A stretch of 64,000 bases of DNA, taken from Mizuhopecten yessoensis. Lineage: Eukaryota. Both the position numbers and the translations under genes were made by a program. A model generated the notes under the pieces. The model saw only the letters and a list, made by a program, of their open reading frames with translations, was not told the DNA's origin and did not search any database. Location: positions 792,776 to 856,775 of the forward strand of contig NW_018403786.1 in NCBI RefSeq assembly GCF_002113885.1, given 5' to 3'. Every line of letters begins with the position of its first letter. Positions within the stretch are counted from its first letter, which is position 1. Below, piece after piece: positions 3,739 through 42,559 of this stretch.

Positions 3739-6700
3739 ATGGATGTGACCCGCATATTATTTTGCATGCTATTGACTTGGACAAACACTGCTACCATACA
3801 GGGTAAGTAACTGTTTGGTAACAATACCCTGTATGCTATCAAATCACAATACACATATAAAAATCAAAATATTTACCGAAGAAGGATGGAGATTGGAATA
3901 CATTGTGTTTTTATTGTACTATTATATCAAAAGAAAATACGACCTTCAGATCGTAAATAATATATTTTGGGAAAAAACACACTCTAATAATAAAATATCC
4001 TTAACAATTAACTTAAATAAAATGCCTCATTTCTTCCATAATCCCACAACAAAGGGAAAATGGAACAGCGTGCGATTATTTCACTTTTTCATGTTAAACC
4101 AAATTTTATCTTTTATCCCTTGCAAGAAATATTTCTTTTCAGCGGTTTCCATACCTAGCCACCCATCTTCAAATGGCAATGGCTGTAGCAAGAACGTTAA
4201 AACCTTTACAAGAATTCAAAATTAACATTGAACAAACATACTATGATTTTCTCAATGTGTATTATAATTAACCTTTTAATAAAATTTCACTGTGTGGTAT
4301 TATTTTACTGACTGATTTTCTTTGCTTCGTGATATAATATCACATTGTTGTGTTATTCACTGTGTGACGTTTTTTGCTCTGTGATATTATTTCATACTTT
4401 GGTGTTACTGTAGAATTGTGCTGTTTTTTAAAATGAGATATTACATCTAACGGGCGTTCGTTGTCAAAGTTTCCTTCCGTTTGAAACAAAATGATATATG
4501 ATAGAAAAAAAATAAGTCAATTGTTCTGCTATAGATTTATTTATTACCTTTAAATATGTTTGATATTTATGAAATTTTCTACTTGCTATTTTTTGATGGT
4601 CATTAATTCATATTACCAATAGTTTATAAAAATGCTCACCTTAATATTATAATACAATTTTGTTTCCCCCTCATTGTTACTGTTTTTCAGGTTATACGAT
4701 AACCTAAATCACGGAAAACAAAAAAAGTCATGATGTCGTTTAGTTGTAGTTGCTTCGCCATGAAATAACTGCGCATTGTTGTGTTTTGTGCAAAATGATT
4801 TACTTTTTAATAAACGAGTTTTCTTTTGCTATCGACTAATGAAATGTTGTGTGTCTGCTAAATTAATTTGTTTTTAGATTATACGGTATGTACTGAAAAA
4901 CCTGTGTGCACTTTGCAGAAGTCCGCGTAACGGTTTATGAACAAAATAGCACACGGATTTTTCGGTATATACAACATAATCCTAAATATATCCCGGTTAT
5001 TCCTTAATATCCATAATAATTCACGATTTTGTTCACAGCTCGGGAGGGGCCACCAGTTATTCTTTCCCAGTCTTTTCGCGAGGTCTACTACACGTTCTAC
5101 ACATCAAGCGTCAATCTCTCATGTACAGCAGACGGCTCATTTCCACTGACGTAAGTGAGGTGTAGGATTGATGTTACTGTTTTGTCGTCCTGATAAAAAG
5201 GTAGCTACATCCTGGCGATTTGGCTAGGGCGAAAATCTTGGAGCTAAGGTACCAAATGGCAGTTGTTACAATATTGTTAAACACGCTCTCTTGTACATAG
5301 TATGTATGCTACTTTATCCAGCAGGATCAATACCCCTTTTGTATATTGTGTAAATGAGCACCTGGTGTATATTCAGTAATGGTAATACATATCAAACCTT
5401 GCCTTATCTTCTTATTGTGTATACATTCAATATAGTGTGTATGTTCAATTTTACCACATCATTTTTGCTTTCTCCAGAACAAGTTTAATATATGGTAATG
5501 TGACTATATATTTATAAACTCTCTCCAAAACAGGTGGAACTTATGTTAAATGTAACCATATCTTTATTAGTTCTCTCTCAAACAAATGGAATGTATGTAA
5601 AATATAAATGTAATTTGTTAAAGCATACATGTATCTTAATACGGTGCGGATGGTTCATAAATTGTGAACATGTATTTATGTGTAGCTATAACGATTGGTA
5701 AAAGCTTTCTTCTCTCACAACTCTTTTGGTTGTTTTATTTTGTTTTATTGCAGCTTTGTTTGGGAACATTATGGAGCGGTAATCCAGAATATCACCGTAT
5801 ATAATTATGTATCAAATTTAACACTGAAACCTCAAGAAACATCATGGGTCGCAGGCACATACACTTGCATTGTGGGAAATAGGTATGGCCGTACGTCGAG
5901 TGACAGTATGGAGTTAACGGAAGTTACGCTATACCCAAGCACCACTCCTAGTGACGTAGTGTACGAATATCCTCCTCTGAACATGCCATATACGTTACGG
6001 TGTGACCATCCGAACAGTAACATAAAACCGGAAGTACAATGGATCAAGACCACAAAAACCGGAAACACGCCACGACGGATACAATATAATGAACGGATCA
6101 CATACGACACAACTGGTATGTCTTGATGATTACAAATTTCTATAATTTCATAAATATCAACAATCGGTTTCATATTCAAAATGTGGGTGTAAGAGCTTAT
6201 TTAGTTCGATGTCGTCATTTGCATGATTAATACATTGCAATTGCATACATGACGTCATTATTCCTCCGCCGACTACGTTTTCTTAAAATTAATACGGGGT
6301 AAAAAATGAATTGCAGGTAACGCATATGCTGATGCGGAGAACGAATATGTCTGCTATGTCTCACTACATTATTGTATAGGACGACTGATGTGGCCCATCG
6401 AAGCATCAGGGGTTTTCTGCTGCTTCTTCTACTCAACATAATTGCCACTGAAACACTAAGGACGCCCATATTTCTTTCTTCTTCCACATTTTTTCTTTTC
6501 GGTGTATATGGCAGCGTTTTGTATATTTTCGGTGTATATGTCAAAATAATATAACCGATTGAGGTGACATTCTTAAGTCAATGTTTCAGTGAGATAGCAC
6601 TTAACTATAGCCCTTGAGCTGCCCTATCATCTTAAGCCGCCGTCTGTGACCTATAAGAGGACACAAAACCCCAAAGCAACGCCTTGTTTACCTTGTTTGC

Positions 6701-9700
6701 CTTGTGGACCTATTCTTCCGCACAAATCCTCTTGATACCTTACATGTCATATACAGGCTTAAGAATGGTATTGATTGTACATTTATATAAAAACAAAAGT
6801 TTAAATTTGATGTATACAAAGACATCGGTTCAATCACTTGTCTAACTGTTTTATTTTTCAACAGGCAGTTTACATTTTGTGTACATCGTTACATCAGACA
6901 GAGGAGGGTACATGTGCAACATTTCCTACCCTGTCCTACAGTATTATATGCTTGGACCGACCGTCATTCTTGAACCAGAAGGTAAAGAAAATTAGTTTTT
7001 CTATAATCGCCAAATCCGCGAATGATAGTCCCAGCGAAAGCATCCTGTTTTCTAATAATGTAAATGCTTTATTTCGAAACATTATTGCCATATCAAGTTC
7101 AAATTAGCATGATTTAGACGCATTTGTATTAACGAGTTTTAAGTTGCTAAAACTATTGATTTTAATGTTCAATGGTAAACCACTGCCTTGACACAATATA
7201 GTATAGTTTTTATGATAATACAGTTTGAGCAAGCATACAAAACAGCAAGGTCTGTTGATTTTGATGTCCAATGGTTAACCACTGCCGTGTCACAATATAG
7301 TATAGTTTTTATGATAATACAGTTTGAGCAAGCATACAAAACAGCAAGGTCTGTATTTTTTCATCACTTCCATGACCTAGTTAAGTGACATATCCTGTAA
7401 TATAACAATAAGGATGTGCTGTTAACTGTCCTTGATGATTATTACCCTAGATAAATGATGACACACGTTCACGAACTGTTTGTCACTTGTAGACATGTAA
7501 CATGGCAGTATAAAACTTATCTATTCGACAAGTGAAGACTAATTTAACTTTCATTGTTATTACATTAGATACTGGATTCCAGCTGTCGACTGAATATCCT
7601 ATGTGGAATTCCGAGGAGTTCCCCACCGCACTGCGAGGTCAAAACCTAACGCTTAGATGTGTTTCTGGTGGAAAGTAAGCTAAACATGTACATTCACTAC
7701 CTTAGGCTATTCCCTACCTTACTGTGGCGTGCATTACCTCATAAAGAAATCCTTTAAAAGATGTTATGAATTGCTAATCAAATAATGGCCTGAAAGATAC
7801 ACAGGTGTGTATGCCTTCACAACAATCCTATACTTTACATTGTATAACAAATGCATCAACACTAGAGTCTTATCGAACTGATATATCATAAATCAAGTAT
7901 GTATATAAATTTACTTACTAGATACTTCTCTAACTAATAAACCAGTAATAAAACATTAGGTTTTCAGCAAACAGTGCTTGTCATAGGTTACCCCGAGTGT
8001 TCACATGGGCTTGTCATAAGTTACCCCGAATGTTCACGTGGGCTTGTCATAGGTTACCCCGAGTGTTCACATGGGCTTGTCATAAGTTATCCCGAGTGTC
8101 CACATGGGCTTGTCATAGGTAACCCCGTGTGTTTACGTGGGCTTGTCATAGGCTACCCCGAGTGGTAGCATGGGCTTGTCATAGGTTACCCCGAGTGTCC
8201 ACGTGGGCTTGTCATAGGTTACCCCGGGTGTTAACGTGGGATAGTCATATGTTACCCCGAGTGTTTACGTGGGCTTGTCATAGGTTACCCTGAGTGTTTA
8301 CGTGGGCTTGTCATAGGCTACCCCGAGTGTTAACGTGGGCTTGTCATAGGTTATCCCGAGTGTTAACGTGGCTTGTCATAGGTCACCCCGAGTGTTCACG
8401 TGGACTTGTCATAGGCTATCCTGAGTGTTAACGTGGGCTTGCCAAAGGTTACCCCGAGTGTTTACGTGGGCTTGTCATAGGTTACCCCGAGTGTTTACGT
8501 GGGCTTGTCATAGGTTACGTGGTCATGTTAATTTTTATTTCCACTGGTTTCTATTTCACCTTTGTTCCTTTCGTTTATAAATCAAAATACTGATAATCGT
8601 ATGTTGAAACTCCGTAGGCAAACAAAACCTCTCATTATTATTTCAGCCCGATTCCACAAATTAGATGGCAGAAGATTGAGGAAGATGGTACCGTTTTACC
8701 AGCGTTAAATCAGAATATTCAGGACCACGGTCGAAGTCTGACATTTCAGAACCTTAAATTTACAGATCGTGGGGAATATGAATGTACCACGGAAACACAA
8801 ACTATCCGGTTTGATGTGACAGTAGAGAGTGAGTGGTCTTATTTGCTCTGCTAGAATTTCAATATTATTTATTCAAACGTACGACAGCCCAGATCGTCCG
8901 TGAGGTGTAGAACGTGTGAAGCTCCAGTACCCATGAGGTCTATAGTGCGCGATAGAGCAGGTCGGCAATGATATCATCAGTGTGTGAAGTCTCGTTCAAC
9001 CAGACGCTTGATCACCTGTTTGGCGTTGCTTGTGCAGACAACAAGAGTCTGGTTGAACGAGACTACATTGTGTGACAAGCCTTGCTCGCTGTGAGGTCAA
9101 GTTCGTTTGAATGACCTCCAGATTTTGAGTGTTTGACACTCACGATCAATCGTGAGGTTCAGATTCGAGGACAACGTGGTCGGCAATGAAGTATAAAGCA
9201 TTTGATAATCCTCGGTTGGTTTCAATATAAAAAGTATATATGTGACAGACGACCTTGAGATAAGGAAAATGCAATAACCCCAGTTGCATCAAGAGCATGT
9301 GACCGTCCCCGGTCAGCCGTGAATATTAAGAAGTTCTGAACGTACGCCCCGTTTGAACATTTTAAAAGACACTTACCCTTCCAGAACACCTTGCATTATC
9401 ATTGACTTTTTCAGGGTTTCTTTGTAAATGTTTGATTATTCTGCATTTAGCCTAGATTTAATGTATTAAGTTCGGGTAGTAGTTTTGTTTACATTGAGCG
9501 TTTTTCACTGCAATACTGTTTGATTTGCAGAATACGAAAGGGGATTTCACCGATATATGTTGTTATTCGTATAAAAAATCGTTTAAAAGCAAGTACATTT
9601 TAGAACTCGCATAATACGAAAACGTTATCATAAGAAACAATTATGTGATTGTCATAAAACATTCCACACCTTCAACGATCTTGATGTAGCGTCTGTCATT

Positions 9701-12700
9701 TAGACATGTAGCCCTCTTAAGCTGAACTGTTGTTGTGCTATGTAAACATCAAGATGTCCTTATAGATGTCAAATGATATTTTGTTTTCAAAGGTACACCA
9801 TTTTGGATAGAAAAACCTAAACCAATCATCACTTCAGCAGGTACTGCAAATCCTCTCCCGTTTTTCTGTAGAGCGTACGGGGAACCTGTACCTGATATCT
9901 CGTGGTATATCAACACTGTGTCAGCGGCTGGTACGTATGTTCATACCGGAAGGAACATAAGGACTTAACTACATAAAGACTATGATTACAAATGGTTCAT
10001 AGACAGATGTTAATTGTCTTCAAGCAGATTTCCAAAAGTACAATTTATACTTAAAAACTGAAGAGTTACATTTTTTATTATTCAAACACATACATCAACA
10101 GTGTGACATTTTTTATTCAGGAAATACCTCCTCACCTATTTGGAGTGTGGGGGGTGGGGAGTATTAACTGTACATACTACGATGTATATGTTTTTATGAC
10201 AATATTGCAATAGAACATAAAGATACATTCTGATTTCATCTACAAATATGCCTTCTATCATTCCAGATCAAAATAATAACTTGGCGATTTATCATGTCAA
10301 CTCTACGCAAACCATCGACATGGCTTATAGTGTACTATACGTTACTACAAACGTCTCATTCTCCCTCAAATGTGTGTGTCACAATAACCACGGAAGTATT
10401 TCCTCCTACAGCTACCTATACATAACAGGTAAGCCTACGTGAGCATAACAAGTAAGCCTGCGTAAATATAACAGGTACGCTTACCTATCCATAACATGTA
10501 AGCCTACATAAACTAAACAGGTAAGCCTTCTTAAACACAACAAGTTAGCCTACCTTTCCGTAACGGGTAAGCCTATTTAAACAAAACAGGTACACTTACC
10601 TGTTCATGTAACAAGCTCGCCTACCTTTACGTAACAGGTAAGCATTTTAAGATAAAACAGGTACACTTATCTGTTCATGTAACAAGCTCGCCTACCTTTT
10701 CGTAACAGGTAAGCCTATTTAGATAAAACAGGTACACTTACCTGTTCATGTAACAAGCTCGCCTACCTTTTCGTAATGGGTAAGCCGATTTAGATAAAAC
10801 ATGTACACTTACCTGTTCATGTAACAAGCTCGCCTACCTTTTCGTAACAGGTAAGCATTTTAAGATAAAACAGGCACACTTACCTATTCATGTAACAACA
10901 TATCAGTAAACCTACTTATACATCACAGATATGATTTTCGGTAAATAACATATATGCATCGTAGTATCGTTCCTTGCTCATTGCACGAATACAAAGAAAC
11001 AGTACCTTCATGTAATTCTTATATTCCAGAACGGGTTACTCATCCACCAACAATTATACCAACCATTAAAACAACTCATATACCGTCCTCAAAGACAACT
11101 CCAGCATCAACCACGGCATCAACCACGGCTTCAACCACGGCATCAACAACGGCATCAACTACGACATCAACCCCATCTCCAACTACACGACCAACTCCGG
11201 CACCAACCTCTAAGCAACCTGCAGTGCCAACTCAAGCACCGAGTGAAGTGTCTGACAGCTCAAACACCGCCGTGATAGGTGGGGCGGCGGGAGCTGGTGT
11301 TGGTGTCGTCATCATTATAATCGCTGTGGTCTACTGTATCTGGTCTAAACGAAGGTACACTTGATTTTCGGTTATATACTGACATGTTATTTTTCTGTAA
11401 TTATACAATAGTGTATTCAGAATACGACAACGAGTGATCATGATCAAACTAATAAAAACAAGAATACATGACATATGTTTAATGCTGAATGAATCTTACT
11501 ATATATTCATCATGACCAAAAGGAATATACATTTTAGCTATATGAAATATATACACCAAAAGTTATAATATATGTATCTATATATTTCCGATAAACTAAT
11601 TAGTTACTGCATAGACTGTATCAGTAACTGGTAATATGTATTAGTGCGCTCTTTTGACTGTAAACTACTTACCCGGGTGTTGATTTTACCTGTGTGGTTT
11701 ACAGATTCTCTGATGGAATTTTACGTTCGTCATCGCTTGATTACCAGTTAAGATACTAAAACATTATTTATTAGATATTAATCAGTACTCTAGTTTTTCA
11801 CATTCAAATTAAATTTTTTTACGAACCCACCACCTCCCGTTTCACAAGTATTTTTTTCTCAATTGGGTTTTCCACCTTTCTGGCCCTTGGCATTATCATG
11901 GAGTCCCAGATGGACGAAACAGTTCCATAATGCAGTGTAATGTTTTTGGCATACACTAGTGTACTGTATATTTAAATACATTTTACATGTACAATTATCT
12001 GTGTCTTACGTTGCTCTTTCTGTTATGATTTCTGCTGAGTTTACTGATGTCGTTACCGTATCTACACCTGCTATGTCCTCTCGTATCTCTTCTGATGATG
12101 TCCTTTTATGATGGCACTTTGATATGTTAAATTTCGTAGATGATAACCATCAAAACCATTCAGGAAGTAACCTAACATTTTATTCCATATCGCCGGCTAG
12201 GCAAAGCATGGACCCAGTACAGAAGTATGATGCTAGAATGGGCTATGGTAACAGAGGATACAGCGACGTAGAAATGGACCGTGTGCAAAAACGCGATCAT
12301 AGGAGGGTGCATAAAAGCGAAATCCTACAAAAGGTATGGCACGATTTCATGTAAAGTAGTAAGATAGGTTATGTCAATAGGATGGACATTTCGTTTAAAT
12401 TCAAGTAACGACAAAACGTATTTAGTGTGTACGGCATTGGAGCAACCGATGACTTGGAAAATTGAAGTTTTATATAGCCATGTTTTTAGGTTTTTAATCT
12501 TGCAACGACTACCTTCAGAGTATTGTGTAACATCGGATTCTTGTTAAGTTAATTGTTTTAAATAGAAAACACATTGGCTCGAGGCTTCCTGTTTAAACTT
12601 CATTCAATATGTATAACATACTTATAACAACATAAACGTTGGAGGGATGGGGAAACAAGCGTATAGCTCTGGTTTGATCTTTTCTCAAATATTCGTCAAG

Positions 12701-13361
12701 AATGAATGTGCAATTTAACAGACATGAGATTTATTATTATTTCATTGAAATTTCACATATTGTATTTACATTTTCAATTGTTTAGCCACACAAGGAAGGA
12801 AAGGGAGAGACCTATACTGGTTTAACTAATGAGAGGGAGAACAAAAAGGGAAATGTGTATGAGCAACTTGGTGGTACCAATAATCCAGCCAATGTAGAAA
12901 ACAAGCCAGAGGAGGCAGAATACTGCTATATTAGTGATGCAGACATTTTGAAGCCTCAGAGACAGTCCCACATTCCTACCTCTGAATCAGCAGCCCCGAC
13001 AGGCGTTTTCAATAAAGAGGTGCCAAATTCTACCAAAACAAAGACACCGGGTGTTAAAGAAGACCCACGAACATCCATGACGAGACCGAACTCTAAACCC
13101 CTACCCGAGGTGCCTCCGACTCAGAATCCGCCATACGGTAAAATTGGTCGTTTCTCCAGTGGCAAGTACTCTGCAGTTGGTAACCCGGCGTATAGCAGTC
13201 GGGTCCCTCAACTCACACAACCAAAACAATTTTCCGCCCTTCCAACGTACATGGAACCTATCACAACAAAACTGTCCGGTCCAACTACCAACCAGGAACC
13301 TGTACCAATAACGCCTGACGATGGTTATTTTAAACTGGAACTCAGGCACGTGAAGATGTGA
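3739..13361 (+). CDS. Gene A: 4-Ig (L1/neuroglian/hemolin-like) type I membrane receptor with ITAM-like tail, 758 aa. Coding exons 3739-3802, 5039-5150, 5754-6115, 6865-6981, 7569-7674, 8647-8828, 9793-9930, 10267-10428, 11030-11354, 12201-12333, 12786-13361
   Basis: All introns are GT-AG with matching phases; total 2277 nt in frame. Signal peptide MDVTRILFCMLLTWTNTATIQA. Ig Cys/Trp pairs: LSCTADG..W..YTC; LRCDHP..W..ERITYD..GSLHF..YMC; PTALRGQNLTLRCVSGGNPIPQIRW..HGRSLTF..DRGEYEC; TPFWIEKP..FCRAYGEPVPDISW..CHNNHG. Then ASTT stalk, TM AVIGGAAGAGVGVVIIIIAVVYCIW-SKRR. Same exon structure as gene C. Confidence 0.9.
7155..7354 (+). repeat. 99-bp tandem duplication
   Basis: Two near-identical copies of CACAATATAGTATAGTTTTTATGATAATACAGTTTGAGCAAGCATACAAAACAGCAAGGTCTGT with their flanks. 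Confidence 0.9.
7975..8522 (+). repeat. 33-bp minisatellite, ~16 copies
   Basis: GGGCTTGTCATAGGTTACCCCGAGTGTTTACGT. Confidence 0.95.
8988..9064. mobile_element. Very short MITE-like inverted repeat
   Basis: AGTCTCGTTCAACCAGACGCTTG ... CAAGAGTCTGGTTGAACGAGACT, 23-bp arms with one mismatch. Confidence 0.65.
10412..10925 (+). repeat. ~23-bp minisatellite with 71-bp higher-order unit, starting at an exon end
   Basis: CTACCTATACATAACAGGTAAGC variants; TACACTTA recurs at 10591, 10662 and 10733. Confidence 0.85.
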
Positions 13362-15609
13362 GGTACAATGAACATGTTTCACATACAGTGATTACGACAA
13401 TATAATTACTTAACCTTATATAAGATATATAATTGTTTTCAAAATTACTGGTTATGGTAAACGGTTGGATAATAACCGTGTGTGCGATGTCGCAAGTTTT
13501 ATTGGACAGATCGGTAGCTGATGCTATCAATTTAATGTGTTTGTATATGTATCCTTAGTGAAAACTGTTCTTAAGATGATTGCTATCGCAAAACTTGTGT
13601 ATTAGGTAATACTAAATAAAGTGTGGAGGCGAGTACCCCTGAATAGAGACAATTTTTATTGTAATCAATTTATTCCAAATATATAACTGTATGCTTTGTA
13701 TCGTATTTAAGAAATCAAACACATGTATTGTCTTGGTATCTGTTAACAGCTTTACATAACGTCATTCACAAGACACACTGAATGAATATATAGGCATATG
13801 AGTAGGATAACTATTATTACAAGGTGATCCTACGACACTAGATAACACTATAAAAATGTTCCTCTCGTTGTTTTCTCTGTAACAGTTATATTATTATAAT
13901 TGTGAAGTGGAAGCATATGTCACATACTCGATACTTCAAACAGTACTTAATGAGTATTATTTTGTTCAATGCATTTGTCCTGTTTGTTATTAAATCTGTT
14001 TGTACTCTGAATATTGTGTCATTGTTTGATCTATGTTAGAAAATATGTAAGTATGTGAGATGGGTACCGGTTATTAAAACCATGTGATATGATCAATGTT
14101 TTATATGAATGTGATTAACTTTAGAAAATATTGTTTCTTCAAAGCCAAAGGCAATTTATATAAAAATATATTTTGAAATATAGGTTGTATACGTTTTTTT
14201 CTTCACTGTGTTAAAAAGTTGAAGAAATATTTCGCATGTGTTAACTTTGCAAATCAAAATTAAGATATAATTTGCATATAAATTACTATATAAGTGTCGT
14301 TGTTCTAATTAGGTTTAAATAGTTTGATTTGTCTGTGCTTTACGTTCAATTAACAGTTTTGGTCATCTAAGGGACGGGCTTTTACGGTGGATGGAAAAAA
14401 CACCCACCTTCGGCGGGTACCTAACAAGGTAGCCAACAATCACTCATTATGAAATCTTTATTACTGGAATTATAACTATTTATCAAAAAATGTTAATGTA
14501 TCAGACAAAGTAATGTTGACCTGAAAGAACAATAGACACTACTCGTCTCGGTCAACAGAGTTGGGTTTTTTAACTGGTACAAAATTATTATTTGGTTTTA
14601 GTTTGGACTGAATGCATAACGGCTTTGGAAACATTATGGACGACAAACCCTTTAATAGTTAGCTATAGAGGTACCGTTATCATGCAATCATAGAACGCTA
14701 ACCATTGGAATATATTTGTATGTACCTGACACATAGTCTTTTCATCTTCACAGTCCTGCCCTTATATAATTGAGCATCTCCTGCAAATTACCAACACGAC
14801 GGGTGTATTTCGCCTGGTTTTATTTTGTTATGAAACTATGATAGATTCATGATGACACCAAGCTAAGTGTGCTAAGCGAAAATGTTGAAATATGAACGAA
14901 ACATATTTTTGAATATTGACAACACAAAGGGGGTTATTTAAATTCAAATTGTTGTAAAATGCAAAAAAAAAAAAAAAAAAAAAAAAAAAAGNAAAAAAAA
15001 AAAAAAAAAAAACCAACGTGTGTACGGAAACATCTAATTTTTTAAACTGAAAGAGATTACGATGTATTACCTTGCAGTTATCTAAGAGTTGTGTCCCTTA
15101 CTTTCAAAACTATAAATGCTTGATTAACCTGCGAACAATATATTTGGAGTTTAAAAAGATATCAAACATGTGCATTGCTGGAAATATGTTATAACTTTTT
15201 AAAATTGCACTTCAGACAGGTTTTATATTTTGCTTGTATTCATTGATAGACTTCTCAAAAGTAGTACATGAATATAACAAATCTGTTAATTATGCACGCT
15301 AAAATGGTATTTCATAGATGTGTATATCTATATTGACCGTGTTAAACTGTGCAGGTGTCTAGTTTCGTGACTTGAATATGGATTAGCTTTGACAATAGTT
15401 CGTACCTGTACTAAACGTTCAGCATTGTGATTGTTTACCTGTGAGCTTGGCTATTTAGAGTCATATACGCTTCATTAAACATGCATTATTTCTCCAATAA
15501 TGAGTTCACGCTGTTCCGAACGACCCAGGGTGCTGGAACCTATCGTGTCGTGACCATTGGGTATACATACAATCTATTTCTGTCTTTTTCTTTATACTTT
15601 ATATGACCC

Positions 15610-15704
15610 TGGTAGGCGTGTACAGGTGGTTGTGTAAATACATGTGTAAACTGACAAATATGAGACGGAATAACCAGTGGTGAAGGAAAGTTGGTGAATC
15701 TAAG
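15610..15704 (+). promoter_or_regulatory. Putative promoter / non-coding first exon of gene B
   Basis: Aligns by eye with 21052-21180 (GGTAGGCGTG..ACAGGTG..TGTAAA.ACATGTGT.A.CTGAC..ATATG.GACGGA) and ends in TAAG|GTAAGAT. Confidence 0.6.
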
Positions 15705-16317
15705 GTAAGATTATATAACCGTTTCATGAAATTTATAGAATATTGTCTTCTATCCACCTTGCTGGTAACATACGGCTCTAATGAGTCTACATCAACTTAA
15801 CCAACAGTTCTTCAAACAACAGGACAAACATTTCAATAATATTAAACTATAAACAAACTAGAACAGTAATTCAAAGCTTCAATCTGTGGACATTGATTGG
15901 TTTCAGAACAGAAAGGGGGAAAACTCGAAGCAAAGTGAAATCAATATGCAATATACAACATCATACCGATATATAATTGTTGAGGTGAACAGATGTTTTA
16001 ATTTCATAAGCTGATGTCAATTTCACAATTTCAGTCTATGTGATATTAATTTATATAACAATAAGAACATCATCAAATCTTGATCTCCTGTCATTTCAGT
16101 ATCAAGTGTATTTCCTTAAAATAATCTGTGGTTAACCGGATTCTGTTCCATAGATGTTAGCATGAAGAATACTCATGGTCATATTTTGGTTTTACGTTTC
16201 TTTGTACATCTACAGTATTAGCATTAATGGACATCTTTTAAAGGCACTTCGTACGTTGTACGTAATGAATACCATTCGTGTACTTAAACTGCATCTCCAT
16301 TATTCCATTTCAGCACC

Positions 16318-18914
16318 ATGACAATGCTACACACGGCCTGTAACCTGATCGTAATGTGGGCGATATTTGATATCAATCAAGGTAATATCTCAATAACTTA
16401 AACGTTCATTTATTTGCTCAACCTGCATTCCTTAAATAGGCAGGCTTTATAGGATCAGTTGTAATTGTGTATTTGTTTCCATTTATGTACATGAAACATT
16501 GTCCTTATGATACCTATGATGTCATAGAGATCTGGATTTCCTTGATTTCACGGAGATTACGTTTACGATTGTCACATGTGTAACAGAAAACCTTTTCAGA
16601 TCACTTGGTTTTACTATGTTTGAGAGTTAAATCCTTTTCATTTGGTTTTATTCAAGTCAAATTTCTTCGTTCTTATAAATGCTTTTATAAGTGTAAAACT
16701 CTTTTAGTAGGGTTCAGATCTTGTCACAATACGTTGACATTGTTGTTGCTTTACACTTTACCTTCCCGCTATTTTAATCCGTATATTATTGATTTCAAAA
16801 CTGCAATAATATCTTTTGATATAATCAATCACTTGTGGTCAATTATGATAAGTTCTTTTTACACAACCAATTAAATTTTCTATGTGACGATTTGATGGCT
16901 AGTACGATATGTACACTGTCACCTTCATCAGACAAATGACCAATGAGGCGTATGTACACAAATGTGTCAAATGTGTACGAGTTGTCCACGAAATCGATGT
17001 TGATTTCGGCTACGCTGTAAGCGCATATACAAAAGTTGTTACATATGTACCGAAATGACTCGATTCAGCTACGCTTTGTTTAAATATTTGAAATATAAAT
17101 AAAGGTCAAATATTTTAAAAAAATAATCGATTTGACTAAGAACTAATATAGATTAATTCTAAAGACAATGAAGCCATGGAAACATCAAATTAAATAATTT
17201 CAAGCCATATTTTATGCATTTGCCTATCACAAAAAAAAAGGTTTTTAAACAAATATCGTGCAAATTGACTGCATCATTCATGGACTGCCTCGCTTACCAG
17301 TTACAGCAAAACAATCGCCGCCTCCACCTAAACCTACACAAGCTTCTCAAAACGAGCCGGATTCAAACTCGTCAAACTCCGCAGTGATAGGAGGGTCTGT
17401 GGGAGGGTGTATCGCGCTAATCATCATAGTCATCGTCGTAGTCTACTGTGTCTGGTCCAGACGAAGGTAGGTTATACATTGGCTGGTTTCATATATTATA
17501 AACTTGATTTCATATGTAGTTAATTGTTTTGTATCTATAGGATTGATTCTTTACTGCCTGGTATTGAAGCTTATATGATATTATTAATCATGAGGTATGC
17601 TAACTAAGTAGTTAGATTATGCTTCTAGTAAACTCGGTATGCATTATTATTCAATATCTTCGAAGTCATAATCATAATGTGTCCTTGTATTACAATAAAA
17701 TGTATTATGATATGGGTGAGAATCTAAGTATGTTTGGAAAGACAAAATCAACTACAGAATGCCAGTAGAGGGCAGTGTTAATTATTTTCCCAACGTTTTG
17801 TGTCTGTTAACGCTGTGGTACGGAACTGTTTTTCTCTTCAAGATTTTGCTTTGTTATTACTTATATGACAATACAATGTCAGCGTGTAAGACTATTAAAA
17901 TGTAATATTACTTATTTGTACAAATTTAGAAGCTGTCTATCACCAGCTTATACAATTTTTAGGATTGTATCCCATTAAAACTTAATTTGATCGTATGATT
18001 GTCTCCCTTTCAAAGAAAATTCAATCTCAAGTTTGAATTAACATTTTTATGAAAGGTGCAATACGCAAGTAGTAGATTCATGCTAAAACTGTACCAAAAC
18101 TCAAACATGTACATTGCGTATGTAATAAACTTAAGTTAGATAGATGTAAAAAAAAAAAAAGGAGAGAGAAAAAAACACTTGGTTTTTAAAGTAAATCCAC
18201 ATTAACATTGTATTACAGGAACCGAGGCCAATCAGACACCAAACCAAATGCCAGCATGGTCTTCAAAAATCATAGTAACAATGATGTAAAACAGGTTAGT
18301 AGCTTCAAGAAATTTGATCTTTAGATATTGTTCAGTAGCATAAAATCCAAAGATGATTTAGCAACTAAAATATTGTCCATTTGATCCTAAAGTTGTTTGG
18401 TCGCATTGCTTTGCATTCATTATTATTCGCTTCATAGATGCTTTGATGTATTCGCATGTAATGATATTATCGAACTGATATAATCAATAAAGTATTGTAG
18501 AAAAAATACTTATTTACCAGAAACAATTCTACCTAAACAGTGTAAATAATCACACCTTTTTACTTTCCCAACAAGCCCCGGGCATCAGAAGACAAGAGGG
18601 AACCTTATTCTGTTCTCTCCAACGCCAGCGAGAATGCAGCACAAAGAAATGTTTATGACGAGTTGGGTGGTGTCAGTAATGGGAACGGAACCCCAACTAC
18701 AAACGAGGAAGCAGAGTACTGCTATATCAGTGACAGTGATATAAAAGCGGCACAAAGACAGTCGGGGAATCCAATCCCATCAGTTAGAAATAACATGTCA
18801 CTAGGTGATCAAACTTACAGTGGTCAGACCGGAAATCAACACATCTCGACCTCTCCAGTTAACGGAGAACCTCATGAATATTTGGTACTGGAACCAGAAC
18901 ACACAAGCTTGTAG
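16318..18914 (+). CDS. Gene B: Ig-less paralog (signal peptide, short Pro/Ser stalk, TM, Tyr-motif tail), 214 aa. Coding exons 16318-16381, 17301-17466, 18219-18294, 18576-18914
   Basis: Each exon is homologous to an exon of gene C (MTMLHTACNLIVMWAIFDINQ vs MTMLQTVCRMIVMWAIFDIGH; NRGQSDTKPN vs NRGQPETKPN; EEAEYCYISDSDIKAAQRQS; LEPEHTSL*). Phases 1,2,0 are compatible; 645 nt with no internal stop. The last acceptor is a weaker AAG, and an in-frame alternative acceptor exists at 17306. Confidence 0.82.
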
Positions 18915-19684
18915 ATGGAATATTCTATCATCTAGTCGTGCTATTTTCAGTGACATGCTTTTAGAACAATAACACTAACATGGGAAAGGTTCTTTGAGTG
19001 ACCAAAGTTCTAACTGTTGATCGGAATAGAGTTTCTAGCATTAACATGAACTGAGGAGTACAATTTTATGTGATGTAAAGAGTTCTAGTGAAGAGAGTGT
19101 TCAATAGGATGGTCTTATGTTCTCGCCTTGATTGGCAATGACATATGAGAAGCAATAATAGGAAATCACAGAGCAAAGTTAGAATTAATTACCAGTTCAA
19201 TAAAACAAGTGCTTGAAATTATTGTTTTATCTTTATACCGTGTGTTCTGATACAATTACATTTTCGTCATTCGGATATATAACTTGATTCCTTGTGCTAC
19301 AAATCATTATCCACGTGATCATGAATTATTCTTCCAACCCATACCTCATCATTGACAAAGACGTAGGAAAAACGACTAGAAATGATGTTCTGTATTAGAC
19401 GATTAAACTTAATGGTATTGAGGTTTATGAGTTTGTCTTTGTATTTATTCATGTACATGTATTTTAAGTATATAAATAAGTGTTATGTTTACATGGAATA
19501 TATGCATCTTCTTAATAGTAAATCAATTCGAAATCTTTATTGTGGTCGTTTATATGAACCTATATGATGAAGTTTAATCGTATGTTAGCAGTGCAGCCTC
19601 AAGTAAGTTTCTTGTAGAATAGATATAAAGTTTTGGTTTTGTCTTTGTTAATCGTTGAGAAAACATCGTAAAACAAACAATGCA

Positions 19685-31600: not shown

Positions 31601-34600
31601 TCTTTTTAAAGGGCAACAAATACATTAACTTCAATGATTAGATAAAAGAAATTAATCAATAATGTTATAATTTACATGTAAAATGGACTAAATTTCTTGA
31701 TACATACAAAATCATTTCTCACATTGATTAGTTAATGATGATGTTTCATTGGCTCTTTCGAATCACTTGGTTTTTGTCTGTTATTGCAGTGAGTGTTACG
31801 TCTATCTTATTTGTTTGTTTGTTTGTTTGTGTATTCCCGCTGTTCCTAGTGTTAATTTTTCGTATCAACTTCGATTCTTAAGATTTATATGTGTTGACGC
31901 TCTGGTATTTCTTCTTCTATTTCAACTTAATTTAAATGGATATGTTTCAAATAACAAATTCAATCGAGTTGATATATTTTGTCGCTACACCAGACCGCTA
32001 CCTCAAGTCGAATGGTACGACGACACGGGAGCCCCGATGAGATTGAATCAGGTGACAGATTACGGCAGAACCCTGATGTTGAGGAATGTCCGGTTTACTG
32101 ACGCTAGGTGGTATCAGTGTAGCGTTCCTGGAACAACTTTTACTGGCGGCGTCAATTTTCAACTTACTGTCGAAAGTAAGTTTCATACACGCCTAATGCA
32201 TAAAGTGGTATGATACATATTTAATTAAACGTTGTAATCATTATCGCAGAGCACGTTACATTTACAAATCACTTTTTGCACCGATGTATGATTAAACAAC
32301 GTATTCACGATAATTGACCATAATGAATAATATTATAAAGATTGTTGTTTTAATTGGCGATTGTCTCCCTTTGTAAATAACAGTGAAAACATTGATTTCG
32401 CGTGGAGAAATTTATGTGGAGACAATATTTCATAAAGCAAAATATGAAATGGTTCAAAGGTTGAAAGACTGACAATGAAGAGAAAACCACTGACGTGATG
32501 TAATCTTTGTCCGCTAGAGTTACTAATACCTGTATCTTTACACAGAGAGCCCCTCTTGGATCAGAAAACCTAATCCAATCAAAGCAAATGTTGGGGAACA
32601 GGTTAGCTTCAACTGCAGTGCTTCCGGTGTACCCGAACCTACTATCACGTGGTACATTGACACGACTCCAGTCGCAGGTATTTACAAACTGTACTCAGCC
32701 AATCATATGGCCCATGTTCCTTACCTCATTGGTGCTGTTACGTATGGAGTTGTCTGTTGGGATCTGCTTTATTCCCTGTGACGCCGTATATGATTAAATA
32801 ATGTCATAAAAACTAATATTTGCATTAATTTCTACAACATTTGCAATTTTCAGAATTAAAGAATAATTAACACCAGTTTTATAAAAATATGTTTAATCGA
32901 GTAAATAATAATTTATGTTATAAACTGTAAAATAAAACTCTATTACTAATGTCATCATTTTAAAAATGGCAAAGCACAAAAAGGAAATGAGCTAGAATAC
33001 AGAATGTGGGATTGACATAAACTGATATGTGCAATCAACTGTTCAACAACTTTGAAAAATTAAAAACTATATTAAGAATATTTACATATTTCTAATATTA
33101 TGTTATATGTCCATAAATGGTAACGTTAATAATTCCGATTAATAACACGCAATTGTTCATATCAAAACTTATAATATAGGACACGTACTTGGTTATGAGC
33201 ACTGCTGACATTTGATCCATACTACACTTGCTTGTTTATATTAATAATTACGATATATGACACGTAATTGTTTATATTAATGATAAAGATACATTGTATA
33301 TGACCATTCTCAGTTTGTATCACCAGGTGACCTTCATTCCGGTATCTGACTATAGCCCAGGTTCCGGTATCTGACTATAGCCCAGGTTTCGGTATCTGAC
33401 TATAGCCCAGGTGTCTCCTTTGTCATTATAGACGTTCCGGCCAATAAAAAACCTTCCCGAATAGAGAACACACAATTAACAGGTTCCACAACGAGCATTC
33501 TCCACTTCATGGCAACTTCGTCCTTTACTGTCATCTGTGAGGCCTCCAACAGCCATGACTATATATGGGATGGGACCTTCCTATACGCCGAAGGCAAAAA
33601 CTTTGATTCTTCAATATAACCGATGATGTTGAAATAATGTCCAAATACATTTTCCATTGTTAATATCCCAGATGTGATCATTTTAGTATTATGATAAGCT
33701 TTTTAACATCGTTTTGTGGATTCTTTTATTTCGATGTAAACTGTATTTTTGTAATGATTTACTTATACAAATCTTATATCGAAGGTATTTAATAAATTTC
33801 TGTAAGCATATTGTGTAATTCCTGATCAACCTTACTTAATGTTTACAGGACTACCACCGACTACGTCTACACAAGCTCCTACACAAGCCCCGACCACGCC
33901 TAAGCCGGCTGGTCAGTCGTCTAACTCCGCCGCGATCGGCGGGTCGGTGGGAGGAATCATCGCTGTTGTCGTCGCCATCGTCGTTGTCTTCTGTGCCTGG
34001 TCTAAACGAAGGTGTTTATAAGATGTTGAACCTTTTCTTCTCAGGTTTTATCCTGTTTATAAATATAAGTTCATAATATAAAATCATCAATAGAATATAT
34101 ACTGTGTCATGATCATCATATAGCAAGAGTATTATTATGATCTTCCTTATAAAGGATCTATGATAACCCATATGATTGATATATGATACCCATAACTAGG
34201 ATATATGATAACCCATAAGATTTATATTTGATAACACATAAGATTGATATATGATAACCCATATGATTGATATATGATACCCATAACTAGGATATATGAT
34301 AACCCATAAGACTTATATATGATAACCCATAAGATTGATATATGATAACCCATTAGATTGATATATGATACCCCATAATATTGATATATGATAACCCATT
34401 AGATTGATATATGATACCCCATAAGATTGATATATGATAACCCATAAGATGGATATATGATAACCCATAATATTGATATATGATAACCCATAAAATTGAT
34501 ATATGATAACCCATAATATTGATATATGATAACCCATAAGATTAATATATGATAACCCATAAGATTGATATATGATAGCCCATAAGATTGATATATGATA

Positions 34601-36886
34601 ACCCATAAGATTGATATAAGATATCCATAAGATGGATATATGATAACCTATAAGATTTATATATGATAACCCATAAGATTGATATATGATTACCCATAAG
34701 ATTGATATATGATAATCCATTAGATTGATATATGATACCCAATAAGATTAATATATGATAACCCATAAAATTGATATATGATAACCCATTATATTGATAT
34801 ATGATAACCCATAAGGTTAATATATGATAACCCATAAGATTGATATATGATAACCCATAATATTGATATATGATAACCCATAGTATTGATATATGATAAC
34901 CCATAAAATTGATACATGATAACCCATAATATTGATATATGATGACCCATAAGGTTGATATATGATAACCCATAAGATTGATATATGATAACCCATAATA
35001 TTGATATTTGATAACACATAAGATTGATATATGATAACCCATATGATTGATATATGATACCCAATAAGATTAATGTATGATAACCCATAAGATTAATATA
35101 TGATAACCCATAAGATTAATATATAATAACCCATAATATAGATATATGATAACCCATAAGATTGATATATGATAACCCATAATATTGATATTTGATAACA
35201 CATAAGATTGATATATGATAACCCATATGATTGATATATGATACCCAATAAGATTAATGTATGATAACCCATAAGATTAATATATGATAACCCATAAGAT
35301 TAATATATGATAACCCATAATATAGATATATGATAACCCATAAGATTGATATATGATAACCCATAAAATTGATATATGATAACCCATATGATTGATATAT
35401 GATACCCAATAAGATTAATGTATGATAACCCATAAGATTAATATATGATAACCCATAAGATTAATATATGATAACCTATAAGATTAATATATGATAACCC
35501 ATAATATAGATATATGATAACCCATAATATTGATATATGATAACCCATAATATTGATATTTGATAACACATAATATTGATATATGATAACCCATATGATT
35601 GATATATGATAACCCATAATATTGATATATGATAACCCATAATATTGATATTTGATAACACATAATATTGATATATGATAACCCATAGGATTGATATATG
35701 ATACACAATAAGATTAATATATGATAACCCATTAAATTTATAAAGGATATCCCAAAGGATTGATATATGAAACCCGTAAGATGGATATATGATACTCCAT
35801 AAGATTAATATATGATATCCCATAAGATTGATATATGATACCCCATCAAATTGATTTTTGATAACTCATAAAATTGATATATGATTACCCATAAGACTGA
35901 TATTTGATAACCCATAGAATTGATATATGTTAACCCATAAGAGTGATAAATGATAACCCATACGATTGATAACTGATCGCATTATTTTTCATCCATATAA
36001 AGATATCATTAACAGTAATAGATCGTTTAAACTGGCATAAATGAAAACTCGAGTAAAAATGAAACCATTAAAATAATATATATTACAGGAACAGAGGCCA
36101 ACCAGAAACCAAACCAAACGTCACCATGGCCTATAGAAACCGTGGTTGTATTGATGTGGAACAGGTTTGTAAATATAAAATATATCTTTATTCTGGGGTT
36201 TTTTGGGTTTTTTTAATAATTGATCATTGTAATTTCAATAAATGGAAAACAACATGAATTATTCTATTGACATATTTCGTGTTTAATAATCAATTATGGT
36301 GTTATTAATAGTTTCGTTATTCGATGGATGAAATAAATGCACTGAATAACACGAACAAGGTATACTATCAGACAAATTCACAAGTACAGTAAGTAAATGG
36401 ACCTTAGAACCATTCCTAATCATATTTCCATTTCAGCCGACGGCATCTGGAGGCAAAGGGGAGCCCTACTCCGGTCTTTCCAATGCCAGGGATAAAGCGC
36501 CACAAGGAAACGTGTATGACGAGTTGGACGCTGCAAGTAATGGCGCAAGAGCCTTAGATAAGAACGAGGAAGCAGAATACTGCTACATCAGCGATAGTGA
36601 TATAAAAGCGGCACAAAGACAGTCGAAAAACCCCATCCCATCAGTTAGAAACAACAAGTCTCCAGGAGCATCCAACTCAGAATCCAGTCCCGTATCAACT
36701 TCTGTTGGATACAATTCCTCCAGTGGGAAAAAGCTGAGTCACTTCCCAAGTGGTAAATACTCATCAATGAATGACCCTATGTACCAAGGGCAGACCGGAA
36801 ATCAAGATTCCCCGTCATCACCAGAGTACTTGGAACCGAGAACCCACGAGTATTTCGTGCTGGAACCAGAACATACCAGCCTGTAG
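26491..36886 (+). CDS. Gene C: 4-Ig (L1/neuroglian/hemolin-like) type I membrane receptor with ITAM-like tail, 646 aa. Coding exons 26491-26554, 27272-27386, 29051-29427, 30917-31033, 31462-31564, 31994-32175, 32546-32677, 33432-33593, 33849-34011, 36089-36164, 36437-36886
   Basis: Total 1941 nt in frame; one GC donor is required at 33594. Motifs: GPPKILLQP..LTCGADG, W..DEGEYICYVSNDLG, LPCEIPYSVPEPEVYW..YDERITSDINGNLH..DTGRYRC, ALHGSDVMIRCIVGGRPLPQVEW..YGRTLML..WYQC, SPSWIRKP..FNCSASGVPEPTITW..CEASNSH. TM AAIGGSVGGIIAVVVAIVVVFCAW-SKRR. Exon sizes 64, 117, 182 and 162 are identical to gene A. Confidence 0.9.
27392..27726 (-). mobile_element. tRNA-derived SINE
   Basis: Minus strand starts GGAGGCACGGTAGTCCAGCGG (A box) .. 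GGTTCGAGTC (B box), then conserved-core-like TTGAGCAAGATACTT and CTCAGCTGTAAATGAGTAC, a LINE-like tail GTGAACCGCTTTGAGAC and an AT-rich simple end. Confidence 0.85.
30021..30149. repeat. Imperfect palindrome (MITE-like) with central CTCGGCTTACGCCTCG
   Basis: TAACTGAG..GAGTTATCT..GGGCTAGGATT pairs with AATCTTAACCC..AGATAACCC..CTCAGTTA. Confidence 0.55.
33337..33412 (+). repeat. 25-bp tandem repeat x3
   Basis: TTCCGGTATCTGACTATAGCCCAGG. Confidence 0.9.
34160..35975 (+). repeat. 23-bp satellite, ~78 copies, in gene C intron
   Basis: GATAACCCATAAGATTGATATAT. Confidence 0.97.
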
Positions 36887-38848: not shown

Positions 38849-39328
38849 NNNNNNNNNNNNNNNNNNNNNNNNNNNNNNNNNNNNNNNNNNNNNNNNNNNN
38901 NNNNNNNNNNNNNNNNNNNNNNNNNNNNNNNNNNNNNNNNNNNNNNNNNNNNNNNNNNNNNNNNNNNNNNNNNNNNNNNNNNNNNNNNNNNNNNNNNNNN
39001 NNNNNNNNNNNNNNNNNNNNNNNNNNNNNNNNNNNNNNNNNNNNNNNNNNNNNNNNNNNNNNNNNNNNNNNNNNNNNNNNNNNNNNNNNNNNNNNNNNNN
39101 NNNNNNNNNNNNNNNNNNNNNNNNNNNNNNNNNNNNNNNNNNNNNNNNNNNNNNNNNNNNNNNNNNNNNNNNNNNNNNNNNNNNNNNNNNNNNNNNNNNN
39201 NNNNNNNNNNNNNNNNNNNNNNNNNNNNNNNNNNNNNNNNNNNNNNNNNNNNNNNNNNNNNNNNNNNNNNNNNNNNNNNNNNNNNNNNNNNNNNNNNNNN
39301 NNNNNNNNNNNNNNNNNNNNNNNNNNNN
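38849..39328. other. Assembly gap (480 N)
   Basis: Run of N. Confidence 1.
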
Positions 39329-40399: not shown

Positions 40400-41540
40400 G
40401 ATTGATACAGTTACACGGGGCATTAGACTGAAAATGTTGCACGGGACATCAAACTGATAATGTTACACGGGACACCAAACTGATAACGTTACACGGGACA
40501 TCAGATTGATAACTTTACACGGGACATCAGACTGATAACATTACAGGGGACATCAGACTGATAACGTTACACGGGACATCAGACTGATAACGTTACACCA
40601 AACCTCAGACTGATAACATTACAGGGGACATCAGACTGGTAACGTTACACGGGAAATCAGACTGATAACGTTACACGGGACATCAGACGGATAACGTTAC
40701 ACCAAACCTCAGACTGATAACATTACACGGGACATCAGACAGATAACGTTACACGGGACGTCAGACAGATAACATTACACGGGACACCAAACTGATAACG
40801 TTACACGGGACATCAGGCTGATAACATTACAGGGGACATCAGACTGATAACGTTACACGGGACATCAGACTGATAACGTTACACGGGACATCATACTGAT
40901 AACGTTACACCAAACCTCAGACTGATAACATTACACGGGACATCAGACAGATAACGTTACACGGGACATCAGACAGATAACATTACACGGGACACCAAAC
41001 TGATAACGTTACACGGGACATCAGACTGATAACATTACAGGGGACATCAGACTGGTAACGATACACGGGACATCAGACTGATAACGTTACACGGGACATT
41101 AGACTGATAACATTACACGGGACATCAGACTGATAACGTTACACGGGACATTAGACTGATAACATTACACGGGACATCAGACTGATAACGTTACACGGGA
41201 CATCAGACTGATAACATTACACGGGACATCAGACTGATAACGTTACACGGGACATTAGACTGATAACATTACACGGGACATCAGACTGATAACGTTACAC
41301 GGGACATCAGACAGATAACGTTACACGGGACATCAGACAGATAACATTACACGGGATCTAAGACTGATAACGTTACACCAAACCTCAGACTGATAACGTT
41401 ATCCCGGACCTCAGACTGACAACGTTACACGGGATTTTAGACAGATAACGTTACACGGAATCTCAGACTGATAACGTTACACCAAACATTTACACGGGAC
41501 CTCAGACTGATACAGTTTCACGGGATATCAGACTGATAAC
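40400..41540 (+). repeat. 26-bp minisatellite, ~43 copies
   Basis: ACACGGGACATCAGACTGATAACGTT. Confidence 0.97.
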
Positions 41541-41844
41541 GCGATCATTGAATGAAGTTATTTGTAAAAAGCCTTAATTACAATTATTATGACTGTACAG
41601 AGACAACTAAACAATGGTGTTTTTTTTTGTGAAAGTATGGCGCCCGAGCCATTAGACATAGCATATTTATATCGGCCAAAGGGAAATGGTGCATTTAATG
41701 CTGACAAGGTCTTGAATTATCTAGACGAATAAACCTAAAAAACAAACAACATTGTTTTAGGGTAAATAAGACTGTACCATTTTGAATAGTGAAATTCGTC
41801 TTCCACCACACCTGGCTGTTACATTGTGTGATCTATGAAAAATG

Positions 41845-41935
41845 TATGGACATCTATGATGACTCCAGTCTTGTTCAGTTGCTACCGGAGCCGACAAGGT
41901 ATGAACACATATTGGATCTTTTTCTTACATCAATC
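41845..41935 (+). mobile_element. Small LINE apurinic-endonuclease-domain remnant
   Basis: SSLVQLLPEPTRYEHILDLFLTS matches the L.Q...PTR...LDL..T motif of CR1/L2-type APE domains. Confidence 0.6.
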
Positions 41936-42559
41936 ACACGCTCATCCGTGATGTTTAGGTTGAGGCTTATGTCTGCTCATGCATTGTGGCCTTTCATTTC
42001 AACGCATTACCTTGACCCAAGAGGTGCAAACACGACAAGGTTACTCGATAGTCAATGGGAAACCCCAATAGATAAACAACTAGAAAATTCTAAAATGAGA
42101 TCAGTTCAGGAAATTTAGAATAAGGTCCATTCGGAGATCAAGAAAGGTATTATCAATTATATATTCCATCTGTCATCATAGTGTAAAAGTAAATCTAATA
42201 TAAATATAACACCAAAGTATACAATGTTGCGTTCAAACCCAACCCGAAGTTAAGCTAGGGACAAAGAAGACATTCAAACTCCAAAAAAAGGTTAGAGAAC
42301 AAAATAGCTCGCAAAGACTACCACCTGCAAGACATATTTTGATGTGAACTACAAGGGATCGGTTAATGAATGTCGCCAGAACAGGTTAGTTTTCAATTAA
42401 AAATATGTTTTCTATAATAAAAAAAACCCACTCCTGTCAACATTTCAATTGAATAGTTTTCTTACAAGATCAGTCCTCTAAAGCGTAACTGACAGGGAAC
42501 AAAAGAATAAAATAAGGCTTTATCATTAATTACTGGAGTAATGTCAATTGATATAACAC

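Follow-up and report, generated by a model that had tools for sequence, protein, structure and literature searches.

The window analysed in our study, an intron-rich 64,000-nucleotide stretch of the Mizuhopecten yessoensis genome (NCBI RefSeq assembly GCF_002113885.1, contig NW_018403786.1, positions 792,776 to 856,775), contains three paralogous genes, here called A, B, and C, all of them on the forward strand:

3739..13361, + strand: gene A, 11 coding exons (3739-3802, 5039-5150, 5754-6115, 6865-6981, 7569-7674, 8647-8828, 9793-9930, 10267-10428, 11030-11354, 12201-12333, 12786-13361), 758 aa; from an exon model and Pfam Ig matches
16318..18914, + strand: gene B, 4 coding exons (16318-16381, 17301-17466, 18219-18294, 18576-18914), 214 aa
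26491..36886, + strand: gene C, 11 coding exons, 646 aa; from an exon model, with the full-length orthologues P0002-P0004

The protein of gene A consists of a signal peptide, four Ig domains, a Thr/Pro-rich stalk, a transmembrane segment (TM, 11272-11343), and a 238-aa tail; that of gene C has a signal peptide, four Ig domains, a short Thr/Pro-rich stalk, a TM (33932-34003), and a 177-aa tail, and the two are 33.5% identical over 740 columns. All introns are GT-AG but one, which has a GC donor at 33593 in the gene C model. One exon of gene C matches an NCBI Mizuhopecten yessoensis protein with 100% identity, and the gene as a whole appears at NCBI as two proteins, P0001 (a 450-aa ectodomain) and P0013 (a 232-aa stalk-TM-tail), while it is whole in Pecten, Ylistrum, and Argopecten (P0002-P0004). 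Within 33432-33619 the GC donor at 33593 is required to reach the TM exon of C, and read-through yields the 450-aa P0001, which would be a secreted, hemolin-like four-Ig form; either the annotation overlooked the junction or the gene has a genuine second isoform. Genes of the cluster are mis-split or unnamed in public annotation, and this in farmed species.

Proteins of the L1/neuroglian family carry six Ig domains, fibronectin-III repeats, and a conserved L1 tail. In our case, P0002 shows four Ig stretches in Pfam without any Fn3 match, and the tails of the cluster match no Pfam family, which sets these genes outside that family; the NCBI names "L1-like", "neuroglian-like", and "hemicentin-2-like" reflect the Ig part. 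The best PDB matches of the C ectodomain are contactin-2 (E 9.6e-37), neurofascin (1.8e-30), and hemolin (2.1e-20), with Robo also among them, and its likeness to the four-Ig module of contactin, L1-neurofascin, and hemolin is one of sequence, with four Ig stretches recognised by Pfam. What sets the scallop A and C proteins apart is that they stop at four Ig domains, give no fibronectin-III match, and carry a stalk and a tyrosine-rich tail of unrelated sequence.

Gene B encodes a signal peptide, a stalk of about 27 residues, a TM (17384-17455) with an extra Cys, and a 140-aa tail with 6 Tyr and 4 YxxL/I sites. Its 5' untranslated exon ends at 15704, and the model that uses the acceptor at 17301 is identical to the NCBI protein P0005. 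A tblastn search of the B interval with the Ig exons of A and C gave no Ig exon above chance. Orthologue candidates of the same build are found in Pecten (P0009) and Argopecten (P0008), on contigs equal in size to those of the same species' C orthologues and with nearby accession numbers; both cluster with B in the tree (support 85/95, on a branch that was not starred). Because the signal-peptide, 5', and tail exons of B are 73-78% identical to those of C at the DNA level, B probably comes from the C lineage, and the loss of its Ig exons likely took place before Mizuhopecten, Pecten, and Argopecten split.

Four sequencing runs were mapped onto 11000-19300, a segment that covers the end of A and all of B. 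Run X1 is a set of contigs, taken as RNA by guess, X24 was used as raw RNA, and X22 covered only a repeat; none of the runs with matching sequence is on record as RNA. GT-AG joints appear in X1 at 11354/12201 and 12333/12786, the last two junctions of gene A, and at 15704/16314, 16381/17301, 17466/18219, and 18294/18576, all four of gene B. These joints of A and B are not seen in run X15, although X15 covers the introns. In X24, the A joint 12333/12786 is present in 3 reads with 3 starts and the B joint 17466/18219 in 4 reads with 3 starts; support there for the signal-to-stalk joint of B is weak (2 reads, 1 start). The last coding exon is therefore spliced in frame in A and B according to these RNA-type records. 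An assembly gap as the reason for the missing Ig exons of B was rejected, given the RNA-type signal-to-stalk joint and the same build in two other genera, and so was the possibility that the B exons are alternative 3' ends of A, since in the segment examined (11000-19300) they are joined by splicing to a 5' exon and a signal-peptide exon that belong to B. As a caveat to the first rejection, the first coding intron of B harbours a high-copy element (16850-17083; summed contig depth of about 31,000 in run X15), at which the listed DNA contigs break, so that they do not bridge the intron; this element could mark the site, or the vicinity, of the Ig-exon loss.

Special attention was given to the tyrosine motifs of the cytoplasmic tails. 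The ITAM consensus is YxxL/I-x6-12-YxxL/I with upstream acidic residues, and it is bound by the tandem-SH2 kinases Syk and ZAP70, or by Shark in invertebrates. The first-pass annotation had proposed such a pair of YxxL sites in all three paralogues, and our study found each of them exactly where it had been placed, on the + strand and in an open frame. The pairs, together with the other conserved tyrosine sites of the tails, are as follows:

12813..12869, + strand: ITAM-like pair of gene A, Y1 YTGL (from 12813), spacer 11, Y2 YEQL (12858-12869), with Glu at -2 of Y1
18606..18665, + strand: ITAM-like pair of gene B, YSVL (from 18606), spacer 12, YDEL (18654-18665)
36467..36526, + strand: ITAM-like pair of gene C, YSGL (from 36467), spacer 12, YDEL (36515-36526)
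12909..12947 (A), 18705-18743 (B), and 36566-36604 (C), + strand: Y3 block EEAEYCYISDxDI, where conservation in the tail is highest
13161..13178 (A) and 36752-36769 (C), + strand: GKYS site, in 7/10 tails, absent from the three B-type tails
13326..13340 (A), 18879-18893 (B), and 36851-36865 (C), + strand: Y4, C-terminal Y[FL]xLE, in 9/10 tails
12244..12258 (A) and 36132-36146 (C), + strand: membrane-proximal YxN (Grb2-type pattern), in 8/10 tails, lost in M. yessoensis B

In A, B, and C alike, the pair lies within the last coding exon, the gene models have no internal stops, and the TM segment precedes the pair by 36-57 residues. For the comparison we used 10 tails, the three of the window and those of P0002, P0003, P0004, P0006, P0007, P0008, and P0009, which span four scallop genera and one further record; two proteins of the window itself (P0005, P0013), two cluster mates (P0010, P0011), and two that lack a tail (P0001, P0012) were excluded. 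Two Yxx[L/I] sites are present in the cytoplasmic tail in 10/10 cases, with a TM upstream in all 8 sequences that span one.

The spacers over the 10 tails are 8, 10, 11, 11, 11, 12, 12, 12, 12, and 13 residues. The spacer, described earlier as being at the long limit (11, 12, and 12 residues in the window), is not fixed there, the range across tails being 8-13. The vertebrate ITAM spacing of 6-8 residues (6-9 as stated in the accessible text of PMC9546547) excludes all three window tails and fits one of the 10, Pecten B. With the broad 6-12 spacing that has been used for Draper and CgIgR, 3/3 window tails and 9/10 overall are included, the spacer of 13 in Argopecten C falling outside. Human FcgammaRIIA has a spacer of 12 residues. 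The acidic residue before Y1 is a Glu at -2 in 10/10 tails and at -3 in 0/10, while the D/ExxY form, with the acidic residue at -3 of the Tyr, is the one quoted in the accessible part of PMC6994640. Pfam assigned zero families to the three motif peptides of 28-29 aa at E values up to 10, which is a weak test in view of the short queries and the HMMER filters, and a PDB sequence search with the gene A motif peptide gave no match.

It is important to consider how often such a pair would arise by chance. Among 20,000 shuffles of each tail, a YxxL/I pair 6-12 apart appeared in 1.7%, 0.6%, and 1.2% for A, B, and C, and in 0.6-2.1% for each of the tails compared; taken singly, a tail thus shows the pair beyond what chance would give. 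There are 4-6 YxxL/I sites per tail in nine tails and 9 in Pecten B, and when the existing 4-6 sites are placed at random, a 6-12 pair is obtained in 40-74% of cases (9/10 tails, the repeat-expanded tail of Pecten B being left out). The spacing by itself therefore proves little, because 4-6 sites per tail make such a pair common; moreover, the pairs of A, B, and C are not independent evidence, since the three copies are homologous.

The first-pass annotation had stated that both Tyr, both Leu, and the upstream Glu are kept while the spacer drifts, and this is borne out in the wider set: Y1, Y2, a Leu/Ile at +3 of both, and Glu-2 of Y1 are present in 10/10 tails with spacers of 8-13, and Y2 is in every one of them directly preceded by Val/Ile and followed by Asp/Glu. 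Invariant columns number 19 of 104 gap-free ones (9 tails), with Glu-2, Y1, Y2, and the Leu of Y2 among them. Synonymous sites are near saturation between the paralogues (pS 0.57-0.75), and the Leu codons of the motif differ synonymously while Leu itself is retained; recent duplication or gene conversion as the source of the conservation is ruled out by the same pS values, so that selection on the motif residues, and not recent copying, is what the sequences reveal as real. A pN of 0.16 at the motif codons arises from path counting between Leu codons and is artefactual, as the residues are identical.

The Y1-Y2 distance is 12-17 residues in 10/10 tails, and that between Y3 and Y4 is highly variable; even so, the Y1-Y2 spacer (8-13) is as variable as the neighbouring Y2-Y3 distance (18-22). 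At least 8 variants are listed in the last exon of A, of which one inside the pair (12866) is synonymous and 5 change an amino acid, all behind Y3. A comparison of run X24 with the window over 13077-13292 likewise gives several amino-acid-changing differences, so the Y3-Y4 stretch of A is polymorphic and the motifs are not.

The Y3 block is conserved better than the Y1-Y2 pair: its consensus, E[ATI]EY[CS]YIS[DE]xD, holds 7 of the 19 invariant columns (9 tails), with a pN of 0-0.07. The ITIM and ITSM patterns ([ILVS]xYxx[ILV] and TxYxx[VI]) are not found at these sites in the window, where position -2 is Glu (Y1), Asn (Y2), or Ala (Y3); Y3 fits one or the other in 4 of the 7 non-window tails. 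The tails of B (18900-18911), C (36872-36883), and Ylistrum C end in H-T-S-L, which is changed in the Pecten and Argopecten orthologues and which we take, in B and C, to be a class I PDZ-binding pattern. The YxNxG[YFC] sequence of the penultimate exon (12237-12267; 36123-36152) is readable as a Grb2-type YxN or as an NxxY/F trafficking signal.

The closest functional precedent for the spacing is Draper, in which Y934 and Y949, 15 residues apart, are required for direct binding of the Shark tandem SH2 and prime the phosphorylation of other tail tyrosines, according to the accessible text of bioRxiv 10.1101/198986. The scallop tails resemble it in the Tyr-Tyr distance, 15 in gene A and 16 in B and C, and in having the pair amid many other tail tyrosines. 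The Draper ectodomain is made of EGF repeats. Draper belongs to another receptor family, it has an NPxY site, and Shark binding has been measured in it, whereas for the scallop tails it is a prediction. A second precedent is the oyster, where the five-Ig receptor CgIgR co-precipitates with CgSyk, a kinase with two SH2 domains; the ITAM spacer of CgIgR is 8 as printed (PMC6994640). Like A and C, CgIgR is a type I Ig receptor of a bivalve whose tail bears a YxxL pair, and it shows that bivalves possess a Syk pathway; it differs in its five Ig domains and 8-residue spacer, and the available part of PMC6994640 describes no Ig-less partner for it. Orthology with CgIgR is not indicated, because no oyster protein was among the relatives found by sequence searches. 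A third, more distant case is given by the Alr genes of Hydractinia, with ITAM- and ITIM-like tails whose function, in the accessible text of PMC9546547, is deduced from the motifs. They too are clustered invertebrate Ig-superfamily genes with ITAM-like tails, but the sequences are unrelated and they form a large polymorphic array, as opposed to three scallop genes that are orthologous across genera.

Because Draper binds Shark through a pair with a Tyr-Tyr distance of 15 and an Ig receptor of the oyster associates with Syk, the likeliest single reading by analogy is that the pair may be a Draper-type ITAM with a long spacer, set in a docking tail with many tyrosines, a reading to which we would give an even chance. 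Pecten B, with its seven Y1 units and a last pair of classical spacer 8, is counted in its favour. It has also been argued, in the accessible text of PMC12132298, that proteins with tandem SH2 domains accept motifs spaced more widely than in the classical ITAM; this makes a long spacer more plausible and, at the same time, the spacing less telling about the partner. The cluster comprises two four-Ig receptors (A and C) and one Ig-less chain (B) that share a YxxL/I-x8-13-YxxL element; under the Draper-type reading the conserved pair would recruit a Syk-type kinase, and B would provide the same tail without a ligand-binding head, acting as a co-clustering amplifier or tuner. A role in haemocytes (phagocytosis, ERK activation) is assumed solely from the oyster precedent. 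The original proposal of activating signalling through Syk or Shark is strengthened by selection, by the Draper spacing, and by the existence of a bivalve Syk, but the pair makes up only two of 4-6 conserved tyrosine sites, and such signalling is for this reason at most part of what the tail does.

Possible partners were compared with matrices for the human Src SH2 and SHP2 C-SH2 domains, taken from the accessible part of PMC10065799, with flanking Tyr scored as Phe and percentiles expressed relative to background peptides that already have L/I at +3. The median percentiles with these human matrices (Src, SHP2-C) are 21 and 61 for Y1, 95 and 20 for Y2, 74 and 14 for Y3, 90 and 90 for GKYS (7 tails), and 88 and 31 for Y4. 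Judged by these values, Y2 resembles a ligand of the Src type, not one of SHP2.

This difference between the two halves bears on a second, possible but less probable explanation, namely that Y1 and Y2 each dock a single SH2 domain independently of the other, as parts of a scaffold tail, with a Src-family or Nck-type SH2 at Y2 and another partner at Y1, the ITAM-like distance being incidental and Y3 the main signal. Such a tail would account for Y2 alone being a strong Src-SH2 match (median 95th percentile, against the 21st for Y1), for the strong conservation of the Y3 block noted above, and for the indels tolerated in the spacer, and an ITAM-like spacing is likely by chance once 4-6 YxxL/I sites are present. 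In Pecten B (P0009) the Y1 unit occurs 7 times in tandem with a period of 17 residues, followed by Y2 after the spacer of 8; these repeats create six more YxxL pairs with a spacer of 13, and the tail stops before Y4. As only the Y1 half is multiplied there, a stand-alone site fits this tail too. On the other hand, Y1 and Y2 are kept adjacent in 10/10 tails, even in the B-type tails that lack GKYS (and, in Pecten, Y4), and their distance is in keeping with that of the tested Draper pair.

It seems unlikely that the tail is net inhibitory or switch-type, recruiting SHP2- or SHIP-type phosphatases through Y3, GKYS, or Y4, with the pair secondary. An inhibitory role through preferential SHP2 binding had been named as the alternative for the pair itself, and it is not favoured there, because Y2, at the 20th percentile, fits the human SHP2 C-SH2 poorly. 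For the tail as a whole, Y3 matches the ITSM (T at -2) in 3/10 tails and the ITIM (I at -2) in 1/10, and GKYS reaches the median 90th percentile with the human SHP2 C-SH2 matrix (7 tails). The aromatic residue at Y3+2 is invariant and reminiscent of the SHIP SH2 domain, which prefers an aromatic at +2. Y4 agrees at +1, +3, +4, and +5 with the SHP2 N-SH2 pattern of hydrophobic residues at +1, +3, and +5 and an acidic one at +4 given in the accessible text of PMC8007070. Against these points, position -2 of Y3 is Ala in 6/10 tails, including all three of the window, and Glu-2 of Y1, present in 10/10, lies outside the ITIM definition in the accessible text of PMC9546547. The human SHP2 C-SH2 medians are low as well (Y3 14th, Y2 20th, Y4 31st), so that Y3 as an ITSM/SHP2 site was set aside as weak in M. 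yessoensis. Finally, all conserved sites are Yxx[LI], Yxx-hydrophobic is also a sorting consensus, and the closest solved relatives of the ectodomain, contactin-2 and neurofascin, are neural adhesion molecules, but that the YxxL sites serve mostly as sorting signals (AP-2/AP-1 type) of such molecules, without being phosphorylated, is improbable, since the acidic flanks at Y1, Y2, and Y3 and the YxN in 8/10 tails suit kinase substrates and SH2 ligands, and since four or more conserved sites, the sevenfold Pecten B repeat, and a retained Ig-less paralogue exceed what sorting needs.

The Draper-type reading leaves a particular place for gene B, which may serve as a signalling partner chain. The accessible text of PMC2803307 describes the transmembrane adaptors (TRAPs: LAT, LAX, SIT, TRIM) as having a short outside part, one TM, and a long multi-tyrosine tail, and gene B has this outline. 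Its protein has 49 residues before the TM, signal peptide included, and a single TM. The TM Cys, right after a GxxxG stretch, is specific to B (3/3 B-type TMs, 0/5 A/C TMs), and SIT is reportedly, by the title of its paper, a disulfide-linked dimer. In contrast to the TRAPs, with which it shows no sequence kinship, B lacks a CxxC and probably descends from a neighbouring Ig receptor gene that lost exons. FcR-gamma and DAP12 chains have an acidic TM residue that pairs with a basic residue of the receptor. All 3 B TMs are free of Asp/Glu, and the TM cores of A and C contain no Lys/Arg; B is therefore not an adaptor of the FcR-gamma/DAP12 type, there being no charge pairing between its TM and those of A and C. 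We would advance only tentatively, as more doubtful than likely, that scallops made an ITAM adaptor of their own, in which a four-Ig duplicate would have lost its Ig exons and gained the TM Cys to become a ligand-less disulfide dimer that pairs with A, C, or other receptors via GxxxG and not via charge, the number of motifs being set by repeats (seven Y1 units in Pecten). If true, an invertebrate would have arrived independently at the receptor-plus-adaptor design of vertebrate immunoreceptors, with the parent genes still adjoining.

As for novelty, a profile of the three tails searched against 1.84 billion representatives gave 6 matches, 5 of them named for scallops, and word-based searches, partly limited to the best 8000 candidates, gave no named non-scallop relative bar generic Ig proteins. 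Atlas look-alikes were all below 0.9 and gave no evidence of kinship. Judged by listing, no paper on this cluster was found for scallop, ITAM, and immunoglobulin, and a narrow search found no Ig-less chain in molluscs, which does not prove its absence from the literature. Long-spacer ITAM-like pairs on invertebrate receptors, Ig receptors included, are already known (Draper, CgIgR, Alr), and the motif alone is a new instance of them. What is new here is a conserved, expressed Ig-less paralogue with an adaptor-like build, together with a natural spacer series: with spacers of 8, 10, 11, 12, and 13 between fixed half-sites, the reach of the Syk/Shark tandem SH2 is directly testable by a few peptides.

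The remainder of the window offers several minor observations. A protein kinase gene adjoins the cluster at 41786-52331 on the + strand (Pfam Pkinase, E 1.5e-15 at 48278-48736), and its region includes two exon-like stretches, at about 42637-42774 and 43619-43791, that appear similar by eye. On the - strand, 53233-55216 contains broken open frames that resemble, by eye, the reverse transcriptase of a LINE-type retrotransposon. There is an assembly gap at about 38849-39328, and long minisatellite arrays occupy 34155-35971 (period 23), 40403-41482 (26), 44511-46167 (23), and 57296-58492 (55).
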